Positions 2,090 to 63,217 of a stretch of DNA of 64,000 bases are shown here, one piece after another. Source of the stretch: Octopus vulgaris (taxonomy: Eukaryota); assembly GCA_951406725.2 (NCBI GenBank), contig OX597816.1, positions 5,642,001 through 5,706,000 of the forward strand, read 5' to 3'. The notes beneath the pieces were generated by a model. The model saw nothing but the letters and a program-made list of their open reading frames with translations, was not told the DNA's origin and did no database searches. The position numbers were made by a program, and so were the translations under genes. Positions within the stretch are counted from its first letter, which is position 1, and every line of letters starts with the position of its first letter.

Positions 2090-3125
2090 TCAGGATTTGA
2101 GCACCAAGGCCCATTCGAGCAGAGAGTTATTGTTTGCGGAGACATTTCCGGGTGTGGGTGGTTTGTCCGAAACTGTTTGAAGGAATTTGTCAAAAGACTT
2201 CTTGAATTTTGTGTGGTCAGTTTCTTTTTTGACGTGTCCTGGTGTAATGTTGAAGAGAGCGGGTCCAATTGAGGTGAAATAGTTGTGCCGTATTGTCGTT
2301 ATGTGATGCGATTTAGATTTTTGTTGTGGACGGATGGCACGTGGTCCAAGCCTTGGATGTATTTTGAAGGTGATGCCAACATCATTCGGACAGTACTGAT
2401 GGAATATTTTCCACATCATACAGATAATGTAGTGTTCACGGCGTCGTTGGAGTGAATACAGTTTCAGCTTCTCTAGTCTACCCCAGTAGTCAAGGTCTGA
2501 CATGCCATCTATCTTTTTTGTGATTGACCTTTGAGGAGCTTCAATTCTCATAATATTTTGTTTTGTGTAGGGAGACCACAGTGGACAGCAGTATTCAAGG
2601 TGGGGTCGGGCAAAAGTGGAGAAGAGAATGATAATAGTGTGGGAATCTCTCGACTGGAAGGTTCTGAGAATCCAGGAACACATTCTGCGGGCCATGCCAA
2701 CTTTGCTGCTTATATGTGTAGCTCAGCTTATATTGTTGTCCACTGTTACTCCCAAGTCACTGATGTTGTTGGATGCCATGATAATTTCTCCAGAAGGAAG
2801 AGAGTATGGGAGTTTCTGAGCGTCCACCCTTCCAAAGTGGATCAGTTCGAATTTGTCTTCGTTTAGCAACATGTTATTCTTTTCCGCCCATTGGACAACA
2901 GCCAGTAGGTCTGACTGAAGGCTTATTCGGTCATCCACGCCATTGATGACCTTCTGGAGCTTGGAATCATCAGCGAAGGTTCTGATGTTACTGTGTTTGA
3001 TGGTGTCAGTAATATCATTTATGTAGATGATGAAGAGAAGTGGGCCCAACACAGTGCCTTGTGGGACACCACTGCTGACTTTGGCTGGGCTGGATTTGAC
3101 TCCTTCGACTACAACATGTTGGGTT
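2090..3125 (-). pseudogene. CR1-type reverse transcriptase, C-terminal half with one in-frame stop
   Basis: SGVPQGTVLGPLLFIIYINDI...FADDSKL...DLGVTVD...RPHLEYCCPLWSP...RLEKLKLYSLQRRR motifs. Confidence 0.92.
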
Positions 3126-7083: not shown

Positions 7084-7419
7084 TTAAAAAATATTTCTTT
7101 TCAATGTCACCGGGATACTCGGACAGTTCTATGGGCGTTGATTTACGAATAGAAATTAAACGTGAACTTCATTACATAAAGACAAACATATGACGTAGAA
7201 GGCCATAAAGTTAATCAAATTCCTTTAGATGCGATAAAAAGTTTAATGAAATTGTCGGAAAAGTCTTGATTATATGAGATTATGTCACTTGCACCAAATG
7301 TATCGATTTCTTTCGAATATTCTTGCCATGATGAGGAACTGGAAGTTTATGACGTTTATGTATTCTTTATAGATTTAGGTGTAGAATAAACAGGAAGTGA
7401 ATTACAAATTGGAATATTC

Positions 7420-7950
7420 ATTTCTTTATTGCCCACAGGTGGCTACACATAGAGGGGGCAAATAAGAACAGACCAAGGGATTAAGTCGATTATATCGACC
7501 CCAGGGCGTAACTGGTAGTTATTTAATCGACCCTGAAAGGATAAAAGGCTAAGTCGACTTCGGCGGAAATTGAACTTAGAACGTAGCGGCAGACGAAATA
7601 CCTATTTCTTTAGTACCCACAAGGGGCTAAACACAGAGAGGACAAACAAGGAAAGACAAACGGTTTAAGTCGATTATATCGACTCCAGTGCGTAACTGGT
7701 ACTTATTTAATCGATCCCGAAAGGATGAAAAGTAAAGTTAACCTCGGCGGAATTTGAACTCAGAACGTAGTGGCAGACGAAATACCTATTTCTATACTAC
7801 CCACAAGGGGATAAACACAGAGAGGACAAACAAAGACAGACAAACGGATTAAGTCGACCTCGGGGGAATTTGAACTCAGAACATAACGGCAGACGAAATA
7901 CCGCTAAGCATTTCGCCCGGCGTGCTAACGATTCTGCCAGCTCGCCGCCT
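7420..7950 (-). mobile_element. SINE family A trimer with 16-bp TSD
   Basis: TSD tacaaattggaatatt at 7403-7418 and 7953-7968. Confidence 0.88.
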
Positions 7951-17137: not shown

Positions 17138-17172
<35 letters not shown>

Positions 17173-17177
17173 ATACA

Positions 17178-17235
<58 letters not shown>

Positions 17236-17283
17236 GGCGCAGGAGTGGCTGTGTGGTAAGTAGCTTGCTTACCAACAACATGG
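17236..17283 (+). mobile_element. SINE family B 5' fragment (local duplicate of 19447)
   Basis: Identical to the 19447 head, including the private variant accaacaacatgg. Confidence 0.8.
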
Positions 17284-17307
17284 TATATACATATTTATAT
17301 ATATATA

Positions 17308-17354
<47 letters not shown>

Positions 17355-17632
17355 TTAATAAGGGTGAGAGAATTAGATACTAATTTAATAGTATATTTAT
17401 TCCACACCAAGTGGCCTAGTGCTACGAGAAACCTGGATTATTATAATATTTTATAACATATTATAATATTTTCACAAAATAAATATAAGAGAGTGGTCAC
17501 TATATTGATCACTCTAGCACCAGTTAATCCAAAAGGTTTCAACCACGAAAATACATGTTTCCCATGAAAGCCAGTACGACTGTTAGCTCACACGGACAGG
17601 GCAAATAAAAAATAACAAAAATACAGATTATT

Positions 17633-17708
17633 TTGGGACAATTGTTTCGCTATTAATGAATTAAATGTAATATTACTTACAATAATCCATTTGTAGCTCT
17701 TCAGCCAA
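17633..17708 (-). ncRNA. Type I hammerhead ribozyme
   Basis: Reverse complement of the 18618-18693 motif. Confidence 0.85.
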
Positions 17709-18165
17709 GACTATCTGGATGAAATCCACTCAATCACACGCCAGATTTTACCATAACGATAAATACGCGTGCGGTTCAATTGATTACATCGGACGTTATA
17801 ATTCAAATGCCCCAACCAACAGCGCGCCAAACTCACACGGAAAACAAATACAGCATTTAGAAATAAATGCAGCATAATTATAATTAATTAATAAGGGTGA
17901 GAGAATTAGATACTAATTTAATAGTATATTTATTCCACACCAAGTGGCCTAGTGCTACGAGAAACCTGGATTATTATAATATTTTATAACATATTATAAT
18001 ATTTTCACAAAATAAATATAAGAGAGTGGTCACTATATTGATCACTCTAGCACCAGTTAATCCAAAAGGTTTCAACCACGAAAATACATGTTTCCCATGA
18101 AAGCCAGTACGACTGTTAGCTCACACGGACAGGGCAAATAAAAAATAACAAAAATACAGATTATT

Positions 18166-18241
18166 TTGGGACAATTGTTTCGCTATTAATGAATTAAATG
18201 TAATATTACTTACAATAATCCATTTGTAGCTCTTCAGCCAA
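18166..18241 (-). ncRNA. Type I hammerhead ribozyme
   Basis: Reverse complement of the 18618-18693 motif. Confidence 0.85.
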
Positions 18242-18617
18242 GACTATCTGGATGAAATCCACTCAATCACACGCCAGATTTTACCATAACGATAAATACG
18301 CGTGCGGTTCAATTGATTACATCGGACGTTATAATTCTAATGCCCCAACAAACAGCGCGCCAAACTCACACGGATAGGCCACTTGGTGTGGAATAAATAT
18401 ACTATTAAATTAGTATCTAATTCTCTCACCCTTATTAATTAATTATAATTATGCTGCATTTATTTCTAAATGCTGTATTTGTTTTCCGTGTGAGTTTGGC
18501 GCGCTGTTGGTTGGGGCATTTGAATTATAACGTCCGATGTAATCAATTGAACCGCACGCGTATTTATCGTTATGGTAAAATCTGGCGTGTGATTGAGTGG
18601 ATTTCATCCAGATAGTC

Positions 18618-18693
18618 TTGGCTGAAGAGCTACAAATGGATTATTGTAAGTAATATTACATTTAATTCATTAATAGCGAAACAATTGTCCCAA
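18618..18693 (+). ncRNA. Type I hammerhead ribozyme
   Basis: UUGG-CUGAAGA-GCUA..(long stem II)..UAGC-GAAAC-AAUU-GUC^CCAA: canonical core, GUC cleavage triplet, palindromic stem III ACAAUUGU. Confidence 0.88.
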
Positions 18694-19150
18694 AATAATC
18701 TGTATTTTTGTTATTTTTTATTTGCCCTGTCCGTGTGAGCTAACAGTCGTACTGGCTTTCATGGGAAACATGTATTTTCGTGGTTGAAACCTTTTGGATT
18801 AACTGGTGCTAGAGTGATCAATATAGTGACCACTCTCTTATATTTATTTTGTGAAAATATTATAATATGTTATAAAATATTATAATAATCCAGGTTTCTC
18901 GTAGCACTAGGCCACTTGGTGTGGAATAAATATACTATTAAATTAGTATCTAATTCTCTCACCCTTATTAATTAATTATAATTATGCTGCATTTATTTCT
19001 AAATGCTGTATTTGTTTTCCGTGTGAGTTTGGCGCGCTGTTGGTTGGGGCATTTGAATTATAACGTCCGATGTAATCAATTGAACCGCACGCGTATTTAT
19101 CGTTATGGTAAAATCTGGCGTGTGATTGAGTGGATTTCATCCAGATAGTC

Positions 19151-19226
19151 TTGGCTGAAGAGCTACAAATGGATTATTGTAAGTAATATTACATTTAATT
19201 CATTAATAGCGAAACAATTGTCCCAA
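19151..19226 (+). ncRNA. Type I hammerhead ribozyme
   Basis: Identical to 18618-18693. Confidence 0.88.
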
Positions 19227-19377
19227 AATAATCTGTATTTTTGTTATTTTTTATTTGCCCTGTCCGTGTGAGCTAACAGTCGTACTGGCTTTCATGGGAA
19301 ACATGTATTTTCGTGGTTGAAACCTTTTGGATTAACTGGTGCTAGAGTGATCAATATAGTGACCACTCTCTTATATT

Positions 19378-19446
<69 letters not shown>

Positions 19447-19863
19447 GGCGCAGGAGTGGCTGTGTGGTAAGTAGCTTGCTTACCAACAACATGGTTCCGG
19501 GTGCAGTCCCATTGCGTGGCACCTTGGGTAACTGTCTTCAACTATAGCCTCGGGCCGACCAATGCCTTGTGAGTGGATTTGGTAGACGGAAACTGAAAGA
19601 AGCCCGTCGTATATATGTATATATATGTGTGTGTATGTGTGTGTATATGTTTGTGTGTCTGTGTTTGTCCCCCCGACATCACTTGACAACCGATGCTGGT
19701 GTGTTTACGTCGCCGTCACCTAGCGGTTCGGCAAAAGGGACTGATAGAATAAGTACTGGGCTTACAAAGAATAAGTCCCGGGGTCGATTTGCTCGACTAA
19801 AGGCGGTGCTCCAGCATGGCCACAGTCAAATGACTGAAACAAGTAAAAGAGTAAAAGAGTAAA
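19447..19863 (+). mobile_element. SINE family B, full length
   Basis: GGCGCAGGAGTGGCTGTGTGGTAAG tRNA-like head, body with internal TA/GT tract, (GTAAAAGA)n tail; many copies in the window. Confidence 0.88.
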
Positions 19864-19956: not shown

Positions 19957-20595
19957 AAAAAGTCAAAATGAGGGTGAAAAAATTGGATATTAATTTAATA
20001 ACATCAATTTAAACACCAGTGGCCTAGCGTATAAAAGACTGAGATTCAGTAAATATTATTAATACACAAATATGAGGGAGAATCCACTATGTGGACGCTC
20101 TTACGCTAGATATAGATCCACAAAGGGACTCAACCACTAAGAATTTTTCTCAAGAAAAATTTAGCACGCTAAGAACGTAAGCAGGCAGGACAAATGAAAA
20201 ATAACAAAAATATAGATTAACTCCATACAATTGTTTCACTGTTAATAAATTATGCAATTTTACTTACATAATTAATCCTCAGATCATCGGTGGAGTAAGT
20301 CAAAATATAATTTGTCGAACTGCACGCTATATATTAACACGAGGTCAGAGACACGAGCAGTTAGGCCGATTATATTCACAGTTACATTCTAATGCCCTCG
20401 TTCTAGAGCGCCAAATTTCCGAAAATAAATACTGCATAAGTAATTCACTGCAGTAGTTTACGCCGGTTTGAGAACATATTAATTTATAATTAAAGTCAAA
20501 AAGAGGGTGAAAAAATTGGATATTAATTTAATTTAATAACACAAATTTAAACACCAGTGGCCTAGCGCAAAAAGACTGAGATTCAGTAAATAGTA
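19957..20595 (-). mobile_element. Diverged relative of the 533-bp hammerhead element (1.2 units)
   Basis: 19961 recurs at 20494 (period 533). Shares agggtga..caccagtggcctag and other blocks with the 17346 family. Confidence 0.8.
20221..20295 (-). ncRNA. Hammerhead motif (core CCGAUGA, probably mutated)
   Basis: CUCCA-CCGAUGA-U-CUG..CAG-U-GAAAC-AAUU-GUA-UGGAG. Confidence 0.7.
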
Positions 20596-20611
20596 TTTCA
20601 TACACATTATA

Positions 20612-20749: not shown

Positions 20750-22330
20750 AAGAAAGTTATTCCACACATGTAGAAATATATGAAACATGGAAGTTGAAAA
20801 TGCACTGAGGAGGGTCAAATAATTTTTTTGATTATATTTAAATATTCAACCAGTTTCAGTTTTCATTGATTTTCAAAAAGTTGAAACAGAAAAACGTGGC
20901 TTAAGTCGCAACTTTCATGCTAGTGTTTGAAGCTTGCCCTGTTTTTATAGGGAATTCATGTCTCAAATTAGTATATGTTTTGAATACGATTTGATTGGTA
21001 GAGGGTAGTCACATGACAGGTCTTAGAAATTTTTGTAGGTTCCCCGCTACGTCCGAGTGTTAGTTTCAAGTGACAATGTTGGTGTCCTAATTAAGGCTGA
21101 CATGGTTGACTGACCGTGTCGTGGCAGTACCAAACAATCAGTGTTCTGAATGTTTCCTGTCAAGAGTTTCTAGAGAATGAACACGAGATTAAGTTTAGAA
21201 CCTTTGTACGTTTTCCGCTACATCTGTGCGTTAGCGTCGCATGGCGGTATATTTTGCGCCTAAAATGAAAGCCGACACGGTTGAGTGAACATGTTTAGTT
21301 ATAGTCAAGGCACTCCAAATATAATCTGTGGATAACAGTCGTTTTTATGTAGCCCAGTGGCTAAAGTTTAGGTTGTTAGCTGTGTAGGTTCCTCGTGTTA
21401 AGTCGCAAAATGAGTTTTGTGTGTGGATAGCTATTTGTGTATGTACCCTGTTAAAGTTTGTTAAGTCTTGAGTTTGTACATTTGTATAAAATTATTTTCT
21501 TTGTTTATCCATACTTCATCTGTGGTAATCACTGAACATAGGTAGAGTGGGAAGACCTGGAATATGGGGCGTTTATTTTTTGTGCATATGTTTATGTGTC
21601 CACTCAGTGGAATCTGTCTAGAACTGGGGTCTCGTATTTGTTGTCGATGAATGGTCAGTCTATTTGTTAGTGGAAGCTTTGCTTGACCTATGTAATCTTC
21701 ATTACATCCTTAACATTTGATAACGTATATTAAATTCCTTGAAGAACATGTAAAGTGATTTTTTGCAATAAAAATCTGTCCTGATTTGAATTTCTGTGAT
21801 GTGTCTTTAATATATTTGATGTAAGTCCCGCAATTGGGGAGTCCACACTTTTTGATTGTCAGTGTAGGAATTGTGGAAGGTAATTTAGTACTTGCGAGGA
21901 ATTTTTTGAGGGACTTTTAGTGCTTTTTACTTTTGAATATCCTGTGCGTTTTAAATGCTCGTTTCATTCTTGGATCTTGTTTTAGTTGTGGGATGTTCTG
22001 GTGGATAATATTGGAAACCGCTGTATTTTTGGGGTCGTGTGTTATAATAAACGGTAGAGTATTGGATGTTGCTATATATCTTTGAATCGATTTTTGAATT
22101 GATTATGTGATAGAGACAAGAAAGAAGCGTTAACACTGTAACCGCAACAAAACTCTTTCTTAACATTTAGACACAACAGAAAAGAGGAAAATTGAAATGC
22201 TACAGTTTGTCAACAGATCGTAAAGTGTAGTTAACTGTATTGCTTATTCAAACTAAAGTATTGTCTTCAAGCAATAAATTTCGTTCGTGTGATTATGGCT
22301 TCAGACGACAACTGCCTTCCAGCATTTATA
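20750..22330 (-). mobile_element. Decayed Penelope-like retroelement (Neptune-like); may extend to ~23800
   Basis: GIY-YIG remnant, 3' non-coding region and upstream decayed coding sequence. Confidence 0.75.
21461..21940 (-). pseudogene. PLE linker, Zn-knuckle and GIY-YIG endonuclease remnant
   Basis: Manual translation: SKKH*KSLKKFL..KKCGLPNCGTY..FTCSSRNLIYVIKC*GCNEDYIGQAKLPLTNRLTIHRQQI..KENNFIQMYK. Confidence 0.85.
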
Positions 22331-28749: not shown

Positions 28750-29561
28750 CATTGGCGACTCCGGCACTCGGGCTGTTCGGACTTAGCCCGAGTATAAATT
28801 TAGTAAAGTGAACATGTATTTTGAAGCTGATTTAATTTCTGCCAACACTGACTTCAAGTATGTAATTGCAGCCAATAACGCAGACTCCTTTTATCGAGCC
28901 TGGTTGCAGTTAATTTATTTTCGTTCAGTGTCTGGTGGTCGTCCTAGAGGCGTCCTGTATCAAAAAATATCATTCAAAGCAGACATTCTCTCGACATCGT
29001 TCAAACGTGCTTGACTCGGCCTCAGAAGTTACAACTCGAGTTGTTATCAATAATCGTAAAAATTAAAAGTAATTCGAATTCAATGTTTTCTTCAAACAAT
29101 AAGTTTTTATAGAGATTAGTATTCAAATTCCAATCTATGAAAAGTTTCCTTTCTACAATATTATTATTAAAGGAACGAAAAATCATCCAGCAACTCTGGC
29201 TAATACGATCGAGCCTGTTATGTGCAAAGGACTAACTGGCATCTCTTGTCAAGAGTACAGGCGACAGTCAGATCACTGATGTTTGTTGTGCACTCTGCTG
29301 TCGTTATTTGATTGCTGTTTTCATGTATAAAGATCAGTTGTGTTTTGCAGGGTTGCTATATTTTTACTTATAATTTAGAAATGGTGAGAAACATAGGTGC
29401 AGGAGTGGCTGTGTGGTAAGTAGCTTGCTAACCAACCACATGGTTCTGGGTTCAGTCACACTGCGTGGCATCTTGGGCAAGTGTCTTCTGCTATAGCCCC
29501 GGGCCGACCAATGCCTTGTGAGTGGATTTGGTAGACGGAAACTGAAAGAAGCCTGTCGTAC

Positions 29562-43927: not shown

Positions 43928-44345
43928 AGGTGGCGAGCTGGCAAAAACGTTAGCACGCCGGGCAAAATGCGTAGCCCTATTTCGTCTGCCGTTACGTTCT
44001 GAGTTCAAATTCCGCCGAGGTCGACTTTGCCTTTCATCCTTTCGGGATCGATAAACTAAGGACCAGTTACGCACTGGGGCCGATATAATCGACTTAATCC
44101 GTTTGTCTGTCCTTGTTTGTCTCCTCTGTGTTTAGCCCCTTGTGGGTAGTAAAGAAATAGGTATTTCGTCTGCCGCTACGTTCTGAGTTCAAATTCCGCC
44201 GAGGTCGACTTTGCCTTTCATCCTTTTGGGATCGATAAATTAAGTACCAGTTACGCACTGGGGTCGATGTAATCGACTTAATCCGTTTGTCTGTCCTTGT
44301 TTGTCCCTTCTGTGTTTAGCCCTTTGTGGGTAGTAAAGAAATAGG
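43928..44345 (+). mobile_element. SINE family A dimer
   Basis: Head plus second headless body; imperfect TSD ggtatgtactctgttg / ggtatgtacccggttg. Confidence 0.88.
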
Positions 44346-44633
44346 TATGTACCCGGTTGCTCTAATGATAATTTGTATGAAGGGGGAGTTGTTTGCTGAG
44401 TAATGGATTTGGAAACACCTTATCAAGGGTCCATCGATATCGATTTTTCCTTGTACTTTTCTAACCACATTGGTGTCAAGTGGGCTGCTGACTTCCACAA
44501 CTGAATATATTTTTTCCATGTAGTCCCACACATTATCTAACATGTGTTTTAACTTGGTGGCTGTTTTAATTTTTAATTTCCTCGAATATTCTTTTGGTCC
44601 AACGGTCTAAATCTAATCAACTTCGTCTGTGGA

Positions 44634-46923: not shown

Positions 46924-48385
46924 TTTCAGTAGTTTTATTTTTACAGCGTGCTTTCACTTCACTACCGAGCGCAGCTCTGTGTGCCTTAGATATGTGCTGT
47001 GATTTGTTGTGATGCTCTGATGGTTATTGTATGGAAAGTGTTCTGCATAGGATGTGTGCAGTGCCTAGTAGTGCAATTTTCTGTATGTTATATGTGTTTG
47101 TAAGTCCTGGTGTTTTTGTTATGTATTAGTCTGAATATTTTTTTATCATGCCTAATGCACCTACTATGATAGGAATTGTTTCTGTTTTTAGATTCCACAT
47201 TCTGGTTACCTTTATTTCCAGGTCTTTGTATTTTGAGAGTTTCTCCATTTCTTTTAGAGACACGTTGTCATCTGCCGGTATTGATACATCAATTAGAAAG
47301 CATTTTTTTTCTTCATGATCTCTGACAACTATATCTGGTCTGTTGGCCTTAATTTCTCTATCTGTGTGTATCAGCATATCCCAGAGTATGGTTGCTTTCT
47401 CGTTTTCTGTGACCTTTTCTGGTGTGTGCCTATACCATCTTTTTTCTGTTGTTATTCCATAATGTTGGCATAGCTTCCAATGTATGTAGGTTCCAACTCT
47501 GTCATGTCTGTGAATATATTCCTTCTTAGCCAGGACTGGGCAGCTAGAGATAATATGATTTATTGTTTCTTGTCCATCTCCACATATTCTGCAGTTATTT
47601 GTTATATTTCTTTTCATTACATGTTTTTGGTAATTTCTGGTGGGGAGGCTTTGGTCTTGTGCTGCAATTAAAAATCACTCTGTCTTTGCTTTGAGTCCTG
47701 AGTTTCTCAACCATTGCTGGGATTTTTCTTTGTCTATTCTTTTGCTATTTCTTTGCCTATTTCTATTTCGTTTAGTCCAGTATTTGCCATGAAGGGACTT
47801 TTCTTGCCATCGTTTTATCATGGTTCGTTGCTGTTCTATTTTTAGTTTGGATTTCATTTGTTTTATAGCTTTTGTTGTTTCTTCTTCTTCTTCTTCTTCT
47901 TCTTCTTCTTCTTCTTCTTCTTCTTCTTCTTCATATTTATTAGGTGGTATGGTTTCTTGTTTGTATTTGTCAGCTTCCTTAAATACTGAGAACAGTTTTT
48001 TGTTTTGCTCGTGTTTTGCCGCTATTTGTATCAGTTTTCCTTCATTCTGAAGTAGATATTTTTGCAGTCCTATGGGGGTTATTTTATAGTAGTTTTCCTG
48101 CTGTATAAGGCCTCTACCACCTTCTATACGTTGTATATATAGTCTTTCTATGTCAGATTTTGGGTGATGCATCCTAGATCTTGTCATTATTTTTCTTGTT
48201 TTCCTATCTATTTTGGTCAGTTCATTTAGTGTCCAGTTAAGGATATTGTAGCTAACTTATAACTGGGACAGCTAAAGTGTTAATACCTATTATCTTGTTT
48301 TTAGTATTGATCTAACTTCTCTATAATATTCTTTTTTTATTTTCTCTTTCATTTGTGTGTGTTGTGTCTTATCTAGTTCAATTAT
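46922..48385 (-). mobile_element. 5'-truncated R4/Dong-clade LINE in (TAA)n
   Basis: HPKSDIERLYIQRIEGGRGL; CCHC CRICGDGQETINHIISSC; RLE NRPDIV..IDVSIP..EKLSKY. (TTA)n tracts lie on both sides. Confidence 0.9.
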
Positions 48386-50092: not shown

Positions 50093-50700
50093 AGGTGGCG
50101 AGCTGGCTGAACCGTTGGCACGCCAGACGAAATGCATAGCGGTATTTCGTCTGCCGTTACGTTCTGAGTTCAAATTCCGCCGAGGTCGACTTTGCCTTTC
50201 ATCCTTTCGGGGTCGATAAATTAAGTACCAGTTAAGCACTGGGGTCGATATAATCGACTTAATACCTATGTCTGTCCATGTTTGTCCCCTCTATGTTTAG
50301 CCCCTTGTGGGTAATAAAGAAATAGAAATAGGTATTTCGTCTGCCGTTACGTTCTGAGTTCAAATTCCGCCGATGTCGACTTTGCCTTTCATCCGTTCGG
50401 GGTGAATTAAATAAGTACCAGTTACGCACTGGGGTCGATATAATCGACTTAATCCGTTTGTTTGTCCTTGTTTGTCCTCTCTGTGTTTAGCCCCTTGTGA
50501 GTAGTACAGAAATAGGTATTTCGTCTGCCGTTACGTTCTGAGTTCAAATTCCGCCGATGTCGACTTTGCCTTTCATCCGTTCGGGGTCGATAAATTAACT
50601 ACCAGTTACGCACTGGGGTCGATGTAATCGAATTAACCCCTTTGTCTGTCCTTGTTTGTCCCCTCTATGTTTAGCCCCTTGCGAGCAATAAAGAAATAGG
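50093..50700 (+). mobile_element. SINE family A trimer
   Basis: Head plus two headless bodies; TSD ggaatataa. Confidence 0.88.
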
Positions 50701-50896
50701 AATATAAATGTCTTTTGAATACCATGACCACACGGCTTTCACAATACGACTTCTATAAAAATCCACCTACTCATTTGTTTTTTTTACAAATGACACTGTT
50801 TTGACAAACTCTGCTAAATGTTATAGTTTTAATATCTCTCTTCATTTAACATGAATTACAATTAACAATAGTTATAATCGATAATAATTGTAACCA

Positions 50897-54711: not shown

Positions 54712-55240
54712 AGTATCATCACAGCTAGACCACCAGATGCTGTTATACACCACTGGTCACAATGCGCTTCCGATTTTATCTTGATTGCGTCATTCTTTTC
54801 TCTCTTCACCCGAATCGCTTAACTAAATCGTCTTCCCATCGTCTTAGAGGCCTTCCAGTTGGCTTTTTCCGATTTCTTGGATACCACTCTTCAACTTCAC
54901 TGCTCCACCTGTTGTCTGTGAAACTTGCGACATGTCCGAAACAGCAGAATTTGTGCTTCCGGTATTCTGCGATCGCATCGGTGACTGCGCTCCGCTCTCG
55001 AATTATCTCAATTCAAACATGGCCTCTTAGTGATCTTCTTGGCATGGGACTTTCCATAGCCCTTTGCATCATAGCCAATCGATGTTATATCTTCTTCATA
55101 GTTACCCACATCTTCATTGCATATAACAGCGCATGTAGGATGGTGCTACTGAAGAGTCTGGCACGCATGGCATTGTCCAGATTTGTTTGGAGTACACCCT
55201 TTAATGTGTTAAAAAGCCACATCTGGAAGATGTTTATATA
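54712..55240 (-). pseudogene. RTE-clade LINE 3' fragment
   Basis: Manual translation: LFSSTILHALLYAMKMW..MQRAME..FGHVASFTDNRWS..WYPRNRKKPTGRPLRRWEDDL, then a short 3' tail. Confidence 0.85.
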
Positions 55241-56049
55241 GATGTACCAAGAAAAATGATTGCACTTATAAAATATAAGAAGATGGTCTAACTTTTATCT
55301 CTTACATATTTCAGTCATTGGGATGCGACCTTAAAGATTTTAAGGCGAACAATTTTACTCCAGTACCTAATTATTCTAAAGACTGCCACTTATTCTTCCG
55401 GTCCCTTTTGTCGAACTCTTAATGCAATGGGGCACAACAATTCAACACTGGTTGTATATATATATATATATATATATATATTTGCCATCTAAATATGGCT
55501 AACCGCTAAGGGTGGATGTTACTGTAGCTTGTAGCCCCAGGTGAACATCTTCTCCAGATGGCTATTGACACACCTTCTGTGCCCTATCAAGTAGTGATTC
55601 CCGCAGAGAGTCGAATATGAAGAGCAGAAATTTAAAAGAAAACACCCAACATTAAAATACAACCAGCCTATTCCATTTAGTTTCCGGGGCAATGTGCGCG
55701 CGCCTATGTGTGTATGCGTGTGTATGTGTGTGTAATCGTTTCTATGTGTATACGAAGTAGGTGTTACATATATTCTTAATAACAATAACAGATTAACTCT
55801 GCTTCATATAACCTAGAGATTCGTGGCCGTGTGAACAGCACCTTCTCATCTGATATTAGGTCATCTAATGTGTGAAAGCTGCGACGGTTCGGTGCCCCGT
55901 CCAGGTGGGGAACCTATACGCTAAGGAAACCGGGAAACCGGCCCTTATGAGCCAGGCGTGGTTAGAGAAGGGACAAACAACAAACAACAATATGCGAAAG
56001 GTTGGACGTGGCCTACGCACTCGAAAATTTTAAGCTATATGGAGCTATA

Positions 56050-61538: not shown

Positions 61539-62439
61539 ATGTATACAACAAGCTTCTTTCAATTTCTGTCTACCAAATCCACATTATAATCTGTTTACGA
61601 ATCCAGTTAAACCGTTCATACATTATTAATGGTTCGAATATCTCGCCCACATCGCAATATTTCTGGTCCTTATACTCGTTTTCTGATCGATTCTCGTTGT
61701 TAAATAAGTGGAACTCCAGAAATCAAACACTTTTCATCTCAAAAGATATTAATTAGCAGGTCGTGAAAAGCAAGAAGGACCTGAAAAGTAAAAAGGAAAT
61801 TTCACGAAATGCACTTTATAGTCCCGTAATGATGGAATAAATCACTTCTGTGCTGAGTGTGTGTGCAGTGTTTCTATTATGCATTAGATGAAGAGGAGGC
61901 CATTTCCGACTTTCCGAAGCATTAGACAAACCGTGTGTTCCAGTCAGTCACTAAAGCATCAATTTGTTAGTCGAAGCATATGATGGATTACGTTTAATCG
62001 GATTTTGTACGAGAAAGGTTACTGCGAGAAGCATGTAAGATAAAATAAATGAATGTAAACCAGTATTAATTTTACTGTGATATATCCATTATTCGCAGAG
62101 GTGTTTGGTGAACTACGATATATCGGAAAGTTATCAGTACAACTGCAACGTTTTCGGCTTCTAAGAACGTCGCACAAGTTTAATACAGTTGTTAAGATGA
62201 GCAATTTATTCCGTAGCAACCAAGTGGAATTTTCTTGAAACTAATTTGGTGCTGTACACTCTGCCTCAAAAATATTGTCCATGAATTGCGATCACCATTT
62301 CTTACCTCTGTTGTAGAGAGCAGCAGTGAAATGAGGTCGAATCGTTTCAGGTATTGGACCATCGATCGGTATCCTTGATTTGTCACATATCGGTGAAGTT
62401 CCAGTTTACATGTTGGCTTCCAGTGACCATGTATATCTA

Positions 62440-63217
62440 ATTCTTTTTCTACCCACAAGGGGCTAAACATAGAGAGGACAAACAAAGACAGACAAATGGA
62501 TTAAGTCGATTATATGGACCCCAGTGCGTAACTGGTACTTAATTAATCGACCCCGAAAGGATGAAAGGCAAAGTAGACCTCGGCAGAACTTGAACTCAGA
62601 ACGTAAGGGCAGACGAAATACCTATTTCTTTATTACCCACAAGGGGCTAAACACAGAGGGGACAAACAAAGACAGTCAAACGAATTAAGTCGATTATATG
62701 GACCCTAGGGCGTAACTGGTACTTATTTAATCGACCCCGAAAGGATGAAAGGCAAAGTCGACCTCGGCGGAACTTGAACTCAGAATGTATCGGCAGACGA
62801 AATACCTATTTCTTTATTACCCACAAGGGGCTAAACACAGAGAGGACAAACAAAGACAGACAAACGGATTTAGTCGATTATATGGACCCTAGTGCGTAAC
62901 TGGTACTTATTTAATCGACCCTGAAAGGATGAAAGGCAAAGTTGACCTCGGCGGAATTTAAACTCAGAACGTAGCGGCAGACGAAATACCTATTTCTTTA
63001 TTACCCACGAGGGGCTAAACATAGAAGAAACAAACAAGGACAGACATAGGTATTAAGTCGATTACAGCGACCCCAGTGCGTAACTGGTACTTAATTTATC
63101 GACCCCGAAAAGATGAAAGGCAAAGTCGACCTCGGTGGAATTTGAACTCAGAACGTAACAGCAGACGAAATACCGCTAATCATTTCGCCAGGCGTGCTAA
63201 CGTTTCTGCCAGCTCGC
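62440..63217 (-). mobile_element. SINE family A tetramer with 17-bp TSD
   Basis: TSD cagtgaccatgtatatc at 62421-62437 and 63225-63241. Confidence 0.9.

Follow-up and report, generated by a model that had tools for sequence, protein, structure and literature searches.

A dispersed 533-bp retrozyme family of Octopus vulgaris inserts as head-to-head arms with two fixed internal ends and is probably mobilised by Penelope-like elements

The stretch of Octopus vulgaris DNA analysed here (64,000 nucleotides, hereafter the window) contains an array that goes back to a single recent insertion of a non-LTR retrozyme, a dispersed repeat with a 533-bp unit that codes for no protein; the array is typical of its family. 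Most of the family's insertions examined consist of head-to-head arms, which nearly always end at two fixed internal sites of the unit, A on one side and B on the other. The retrozyme class and the Penelope insertion footprint are already known, and the family-wide end rule on retrozymes is what is added. We are highly confident that the family is mobilised by Penelope-like elements, and confident that priming takes place at two ends. The initial annotation of this DNA rightly called the array retrozyme-like, since it consists of tandem non-coding hammerhead units of a dispersed family. It overlooked that the family is dispersed, that its arms have fixed ends, that (TA)n is its target and that it is linked to Penelope. 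Array anatomy, the end rule, target bias, shared haplotypes, a conserved predicted fold and intact Penelope elements were all observed and are described below.

The array covers 2038 bp, or 3.8 units, and contains two substitutions (Table 1). Unit positions are numbered from the base directly 3' of the hammerhead cut, window 18690. The period is exactly 533 bp in both arms and mismatches occur only at 18338 and 18350, both in the left arm, which bears out the exact periodicity and near-identical units of the initial annotation. Its four units prove to be 3.8 (1.93 + 1.89), although in a two-armed array as implied. The palindrome it described stands as far as the head-to-head arms are concerned. 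These are, however, out of phase, so the palindrome is imperfect, with a 909-bp inverted-repeat stem and a 110-nt loop. The great youth ascribed to the array agrees with two substitutions in 2038 bp and with identical units on three other contigs. The longest stop-to-stop frame lying fully within the array is 63 aa, in line with the reported lack of an ORF, and the RT + GIY-YIG ORF of an autonomous Penelope-like element, the feature tested, is absent from the array. GC content is 0.33-0.35 in the 2-kb bins covering the array.

Table 1. Coordinates of features at the array, of related features in the window and of one intact element elsewhere in the genome.
Feature	Position	Strand	Remarks
Left arm	17346..18374	- (hammerhead strand)	1029 bp, 1.93 units; inner (5') end at unit position 329; outer (3') end at site B, unit 291, at 17346
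Right arm	18375..19383	+ (hammerhead strand)	1009 bp, 1.89 units; inner (5') end at unit position 219; outer (3') end at site A, unit 161, at 19383
Head-to-head junction	18374..18375		0 overlap, 0 insert
(TA)n target run, left	17284..17345	.	
(TA)n target run, right	19384..19437	.	
Direct duplicate, 113 bp	17172..17284	+	98% identical to 19383-19495; TA run and head of dispersed repeat
Type I hammerhead motif	17624..17717	-	core start 17704; predicted cut after 17637
Type I hammerhead motif	18157..18250	-	core start 18237; predicted cut after 18170
Type I hammerhead motif	18609..18702	+	core start 18622; predicted cut after 18689
Type I hammerhead motif	19142..19235	+	core start 19155; predicted cut after 19222
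Predicted 533-nt monomer, left arm	17637..18169	-	
Predicted 533-nt monomer, right arm	18690..19222	+	
9-nt motif C[TA]C[TC]CT[TC]AT	17358..17366	-	just 5' of site B
9-nt motif C[TA]C[TC]CT[TC]AT	19366..19374	+	just 5' of site A
Older sister retrozyme insertion	19959..20606	-	1.22 units of 533 bp; ~61% identical to young unit
Decayed Penelope-like GIY-YIG end fragment	21473..22060	-	45% identical to intact family
Intact two-ORF Penelope-like element	L113:2244-7460 (contig C6)		479 aa + 781 aa

The full junction sequence is unique to the window locus among the best 40 of 828 candidates. Among the pieces listed from four public runs, the large run being covered to ~76%, none bridges the junction 18374/18375, which says nothing on polymorphism. 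Contigs of an independent public run contain seven other left-arm-to-right-arm joints, whose sides are just 25-29 nt long. A joint from 18907 back to 18375 is present in each of three runs guessed to be RNA, and X1 yielded a single 563-nt contig. Since tandem DNA yields the same, these observations permit no inference on transcription or circles. For the left flank, neither a second allele nor an empty site is present in the assembly.

The 113-bp direct duplicate is separated from the left arm by 62 bp. It may have arisen as a long target duplication to which further TA was added, or it may go back to a tandem duplication that predates the insertion. No duplication of this type was found as a family trait in the flanks of the 40 best loci. 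Among these, target duplications outside microsatellites are clear only at L043 (14 bp), and a ~100-bp duplication at L039 lies in a compound microsatellite. A SINE-like dispersed repeat occupies 19444-19860, directly right of the array, and recurs near 29393, 51714 and 60976. A duplicate of its first ~50 bases lies at 17233-17284.

One complete type I hammerhead motif is present per unit, as previously annotated, and the four motifs of the array are identical (CUGAAGA...GAAAC AAUU GUC). Their positions agree with the cuts that had been predicted after 18689 and 19222. The assignment was made by inspection and constrained folding, which gives a canonical catalytic core, an extended stem I of 4 bp, a stem II of 4 bp prolonged by a long hairpin, and a stem III of 2 bp with a palindromic AAUU loop. 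The earlier description of the hammerheads as canonical thus applies to the core, but not to the long stem II hairpin or the 2-bp stem III, and Rfam returned no hammerhead match at the gathering score or at E up to 10. From these motifs the 533-bp unit is predicted to carry a self-cutting hammerhead RNA. A segment of 533 nt lies between the two hammerheads of each arm, consistent with the unit-length monomer proposed before.

The monomer circle folds at -145.4 kcal/mol with 68% of bases paired (z -8.7 against 40 shuffles), and its reverse complement reaches only -112.2 kcal/mol. In one-arm transcripts the predicted active fold lies 1.3-2.0 kcal/mol above the minimum free energy (MFE). The antisense arm precedes the plus-strand hammerheads in a full transcript, and in the MFE fold both of these pair with it, with 95% of bases paired. 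Because of this pairing, monomers would have to come from transcription that begins within an arm, or from one-armed loci. Read-through of both arms should, by these predictions, bury the ribozymes in dsRNA with no monomer release, contrary to the earlier proposal that read-through in either direction frees monomers. A whole-array transcript would form ~0.9 kb of dsRNA.

The unit was searched against the 2.8-Gb assembly (227 contigs), yielding 819 candidates, of which the best 40 gave 236 matches. These 40 best-scoring loci (L031-L070, with the window locus as L070) were analysed; as top-scoring copies they over-represent young, long arrays that contain one unit or more. The window array is far beyond chance occurrence, and units 100% identical to its own are found on contigs C8, C14 and C26. 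Singleton substitutions number 54 in 90,682 bases over the 40 loci, and arm lengths span 0.1-8 units. Two arms are present at 28/40 loci, head to head in all 28. Head-to-head arms are also a known Penelope insertion footprint, and the palindrome is therefore no special property of the window locus.

The outer ends of the arms follow a strict pattern. In 26/28 two-armed loci one side ends at A (unit 155-165) and the other at B (283-297), and no A+A or B+B insertion occurs among the 28. The chance of 26/26 A+B under free 50:50 choice is 1.5e-8. The two exceptions are L034, in which an arm has an internal deletion followed by the letters of A, and L045, in which one arm stops at 272. Of the 12 one-armed loci, eight end at B and four at A. 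One of them is interrupted by a contig end, and at L054 the opposite arm is damaged, with many single-base losses, and falls under the identity filter. The inner ends are distributed uniformly round the unit (n = 56, Rayleigh p 0.66). Junction overlap is 0-4 nt in 23/28 loci, and 4-19 extra letters are found in the other five. Complex junctions with 8-19 extra letters were noted at L050, L055 and L068, and short fold-back pieces at the L041 junction (L041:2982-3032). The offsets between the inner end of one arm and the outer end of the other are scattered across the whole unit.

By eye, outer ends adjoin (TA)n or TA-rich repeats except at L043 and one end of L045. L043 lies at a non-microsatellite site with its 14-bp target duplication, and A and B are both still used. 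Since the sites are used there away from TA, they must be set at this locus by the RNA and not by TA pairing. The outward ends are at the positions expected if target 3' ends primed the copying of hammerhead-strand RNA, and on this reading each arm looks like first-strand cDNA. The distance from A to B is 130 nt, the counterpart of the Penelope tail. The 9-nt motif listed in Table 1 occurs exactly twice per unit in both the young and the sister family, a few bases 5' of each site; it was defined post hoc and is a lead only. Beyond the site-B end at L032 and L042 are apparent relics, recognised by eye, of older relatives ending at the same site, which suggests that the same TA runs are used repeatedly for insertion.

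A sister family was found with 2648 candidates. The majority unit of 19 sister loci has the same length of 533 nt and is 61% identical to the young unit, with a hammerhead core CCGAUGA and a GUA cut site. In 20 sister loci the terminal arms stop at positions homologous to A or B. Among seven two-armed loci, five are A+B and in the other two the short arm ends at a third, AT-rich point. The tail is ~105 nt. The predicted folds of the two families have 87/180 pairs in common, with letters changed in 28 of these, including all of hammerhead stem I; this is a comparison of two predicted folds with no covariation statistic. The sister copy in the window is flanked by TA-rich runs and its end is the site-B homologue. 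Penelope fragments near sister copies, in the window and at L083, were considered as a coding body of the sister element and rejected, as microsatellites lie between.

Candidate enzymes are abundant in this genome, where a GIY-YIG search gave 6136 candidates. One Penelope family has near-identical copies with dozens of uninterrupted 781-aa frames matching RT + GIY-YIG, a 479-aa frame upstream and terminal repeats of ~500 bp. Its linker, CxxxxCxxC, resembles the cysteine linker described for Neptune in the available text of PMC8557442, and on this resemblance the family may be Neptune-like. Like the retrozyme it inserts in (TA)n, and it has two end sites and a 31-nt tail. Ends on both strands are present at 8/48 loci and all eight are A+B, with the arms adjacent in seven and 2.4 kb apart in one. 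The remaining 40 loci end at A in 35 cases and at B in five. A second young Penelope family (L121:2821-5983; L122; L061) has an inverted arm of 766 bp that is 100% identical, two end sites ~30 nt apart, and the same end pattern at L121. Comparison of the retrozyme unit with Penelope terminal repeats from 67 GIY-YIG loci, sampled from the 6136 and dominated by one family, gave no similarity beyond low-complexity matches, which leaves these families as candidate partners of the retrozyme. The terminal repeat of L113 contains, by eye, a possible variant hammerhead (UUGAUAA...GAAAC, ~7355-7390). At L048:1995-2355 the TA in which a retrozyme arm ends directly adjoins a Penelope copy, 96% identical to the intact family, at its 5'-truncated side.

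On balance we favour a model that combines two-ended Penelope priming at A and B with rolling round a ribozyme-made circular template. A tandem transcript would cleave itself at GUC and the product would be ligated into a 533-nt circle. This RNA would be bound by a Penelope RT/GIY-YIG protein, probably dimeric, that cuts both strands of (TA)n. Priming would take place at site A (unit ~160) from one DNA end and at site B (~291) from the other. The RTs would then each make 0.1-8 turns of the template before halting at random, and the resulting cDNA ends would be joined via 0-4 nt of microhomology. The 130 nt separating A and B would correspond to the Penelope 'tail'. In this scheme we infer cleavage, circles, the protein partner and the order of events. 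A more specific form is put forward tentatively, as something that may well be wrong. The RT dimer might hold one closed 533-nt RNA at the two copies of the 9-nt motif, with one cut DNA end at each, and perform twin rolling-circle reverse transcription, producing a head-to-head array of up to 12 units per event. Internal initiation would permit the copying of circles that have no 3' end, and the tail would be the distance between two obligatory starts, one per strand. The genome would in that case preserve the step that is missing from the retrozyme cycle. The length of the tail, 130 nt versus the published 30-40, is evidence against the main model. So are the absence of similarity to the Penelope terminal repeats sampled, the third end point at two sister loci, the in vitro use of uncut RNA by the anole element, whose hammerhead is dispensable, and the failure of 8/9 Xenopus retrozyme dimers to cleave.

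Each of the 40 loci carries a single haplotype. At L045, L046, L048 and L059, locus-private substitutions are present in every unit that covers their position, in both arms; at L038, L049, L056 and L058 the same holds for the one arm that covers them. Indels within 3 nt are absent from all 172 cut-site crossings. Private variants in all units and indel-free crossings fit a one-unit template copied seamlessly many times. A rather unlikely alternative is that the same two-ended priming acts on a long uncut tandem transcript, with no circle, and that the arrays are later re-lengthened or homogenised by unequal exchange. Copying with truncation offers no way to lengthen arrays, whereas arms of up to 8 units occur, and fixation of private variants across all units of both arms also argues against it. 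Uniform daughters would, on the other hand, be expected from the transcript of an already uniform linear array, and unprocessed RNA is the main in vitro substrate of the anole element in the available text of PMC11167929. Some variants are found in two adjacent units only (L055, L058, L059), and L060 and L046 are mosaic. Such partly shared variants, with L060, favour the linear template, as they do not arise from a single monomer circle without later unit duplication or conversion. The fold of the RNA speaks for the circle: it is strong on the hammerhead strand only, and is kept, with changed pairs across the cut site, in the 61%-identical family.

Two-ended priming itself could be replaced by a scheme in which one arm is target-primed and the other is cDNA or antisense RNA that folds back to copy itself, with endonuclease trimming at a fixed site. 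The ideas of self-priming and endonuclease resolution behind it appear in the available parts of PMC3846280 and PMC8557442. We consider it improbable, although it would account for shared haplotypes and two differing ends. One arm lies within the other in 23/26 A+B loci, as fold-back would have it, but neither contains the other at the remaining three (window, L048, L066), where strict fold-back predicts 0 and randomly paired arms 4.6; later unit gain could explain these three. The fold-back pieces at L041 and the inner ends that lie at most 20 nt apart in 4/28 loci are in its favour, yet 2.2 such loci are expected by chance and there is no clear excess. The two left-arm substitutions of the window have no counterpart in the right arm, and the two sites match the in vitro start-site behaviour of the RT reported in the available text of PMC11167929. 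An anticorrelation of arm lengths (rho -0.46, p 0.02) was set aside as selection bias, since only loci with a full unit had been selected. Long reads are known to yield near-perfect inverted repeats as an artefact. That the array is such an assembly or read fold-back artefact, or else a host-selected hairpin-RNA locus, is very improbable: its out-of-phase arms terminate at sites that are fixed throughout the family, its flanks differ, and diverged sister copies share the architecture. The seven other left-right joints in contigs of the independent run also contradict an artefact. The ~0.9 kb of dsRNA expected from a whole transcript would suit a hairpin locus, but the insertion is too young to show selection.

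If the favoured model of two-ended priming on a circle is true, retrozymes are tied to Penelope by mechanism and not by mere co-occurrence, and a reverse transcriptase integrates concatemers off circular RNA. The end rule renders an open mechanistic question directly testable. Its predictions are at base level, with starts at unit ~160 and ~291, one per DNA end, in a (TA)n target; the RNA is short and defined, and an intact candidate for the enzyme lies in the same genome. Each insertion leaves a kilobase-scale inverted repeat, a possible source of dsRNA.

Other repeats were noted in the window. A unit of 183-184 bp forms five short tandem arrays of 2-4 copies (1-399, 7420-7857, 43978-44348, 50141-50704 and 62433-63174), with 85-95% matches between copies. 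It gave no tRNA call and, in the three arrays checked, no clear hammerhead motif; it could be another element inserted as ready-made tandems. A tRNA scan of the 64-kb window found none. No promoter was located; the scan for them was a bacterial one, which does not apply to an animal. ORFs at 2090-2722 (-), 47126-48256 (-) and 54729-55241 (+) resemble what we take to be fragments of non-LTR retrotransposon proteins.

In L1 twin priming both target strands prime on the RNA, which produces a 5' inversion. L1 copying begins at the poly(A) end, and its second primer lands at the stopping point of the first cDNA. The retrozyme shares with it the inversion and, probably, priming from both target strands. 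It differs in that both starts lie at fixed internal sites and that the position of an arm's inner end bears no relation to the outer end of the opposite arm. L1-type twin priming was rejected: the outer ends of the 40 loci have no poly(A) end, and there is no arm-to-arm continuity.

Non-LTR retrozymes of animals were defined, and Penelope elements named as their likely drivers, in PMC7229834. The available text of bioRxiv 10.64898/2026.07.22.740005 backs the Penelope link by distribution and terminal-repeat homology, leaves the mechanism open, and prefers local amplification through unequal crossover; the terms 'tail' and 'initiation' are absent from it. It reports no cleavage in 8/9 Xenopus retrozyme dimers. 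In the parts available, both sources state that the return of retrozyme circles to the genome is open. The octopus family shares with these retrozymes tandem non-coding, dispersed units of low GC with one type I hammerhead each, a highly self-paired predicted circle, a 2-bp stem III with a tetraloop, and a proposed mobilisation by Penelope. At 533 bp its unit exceeds the 150-450 given in PMC7229834 and the 170-400 nt of invertebrate circles, but lies within the 51-972 bp of consensus units in bioRxiv 10.64898/2026.07.22.740005, and so is not unusually long as the initial annotation held. Stem II differs in being a long hairpin. Head-to-head arms, fixed internal ends and (TA)n targeting do not appear in the available text of either source. 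Within an incomplete coverage of the literature we found no report of a head-to-head A/B footprint on retrozymes, of a cephalopod retrozyme family, or of a strict one-site-per-end rule; older work and supplements may already show parts of this. The portions available of bioRxiv 10.1101/2022.05.23.493040 and PMC12602865 contain nothing on the end rule.

The non-autonomous Chlamys elements, such as MRC1, are likewise non-coding dependants of Penelope with multicopy head-to-tail insertions, as described in the available parts of PMC8557442. They generally match the autonomous family at their 3' ends and mostly lack hammerheads, whereas the retrozyme has a hammerhead in every unit and no resemblance to the autonomous families sampled was found.

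The closest parallel is with Penelope elements that encode GIY-YIG (Neptune, Poseidon, Naiad), for which the available text of PMC8557442 states as open how tandem and inverted insertions and the tail arise. The retrozyme differs from them in having no ORF, in both arms being multi-unit, in showing no homology to the sampled terminal repeats, and in a tail of ~130 nt (~105 in the sister family) against the published 30-40 (PMC8557442). A strict one-site-per-end rule is unstated in the available text of PMC8557442, PMC3846280 and PMC11167929, and the terms 'retrozyme' and 'circular' are absent from that of the last. For the anole element the same source describes a protein, predicted to be a dimer, that cuts and extends both strands, two internal RNA start sites that bound the tail without target homology, and in vitro use of uncut RNA with the hammerhead dispensable. 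Penelope elements show inverted 5' copies, a tail of 30-40 bp at one end and a (TA)n bias (PMC8557442, PMC3846280). As far as the available parts of these three sources describe them, Penelope elements share with the retrozyme the inverted, 5'-truncated head-to-head copy, the one-end tail, the microsatellite bias, microhomology at the junctions, two internal start sites and a hammerhead in the repeat.
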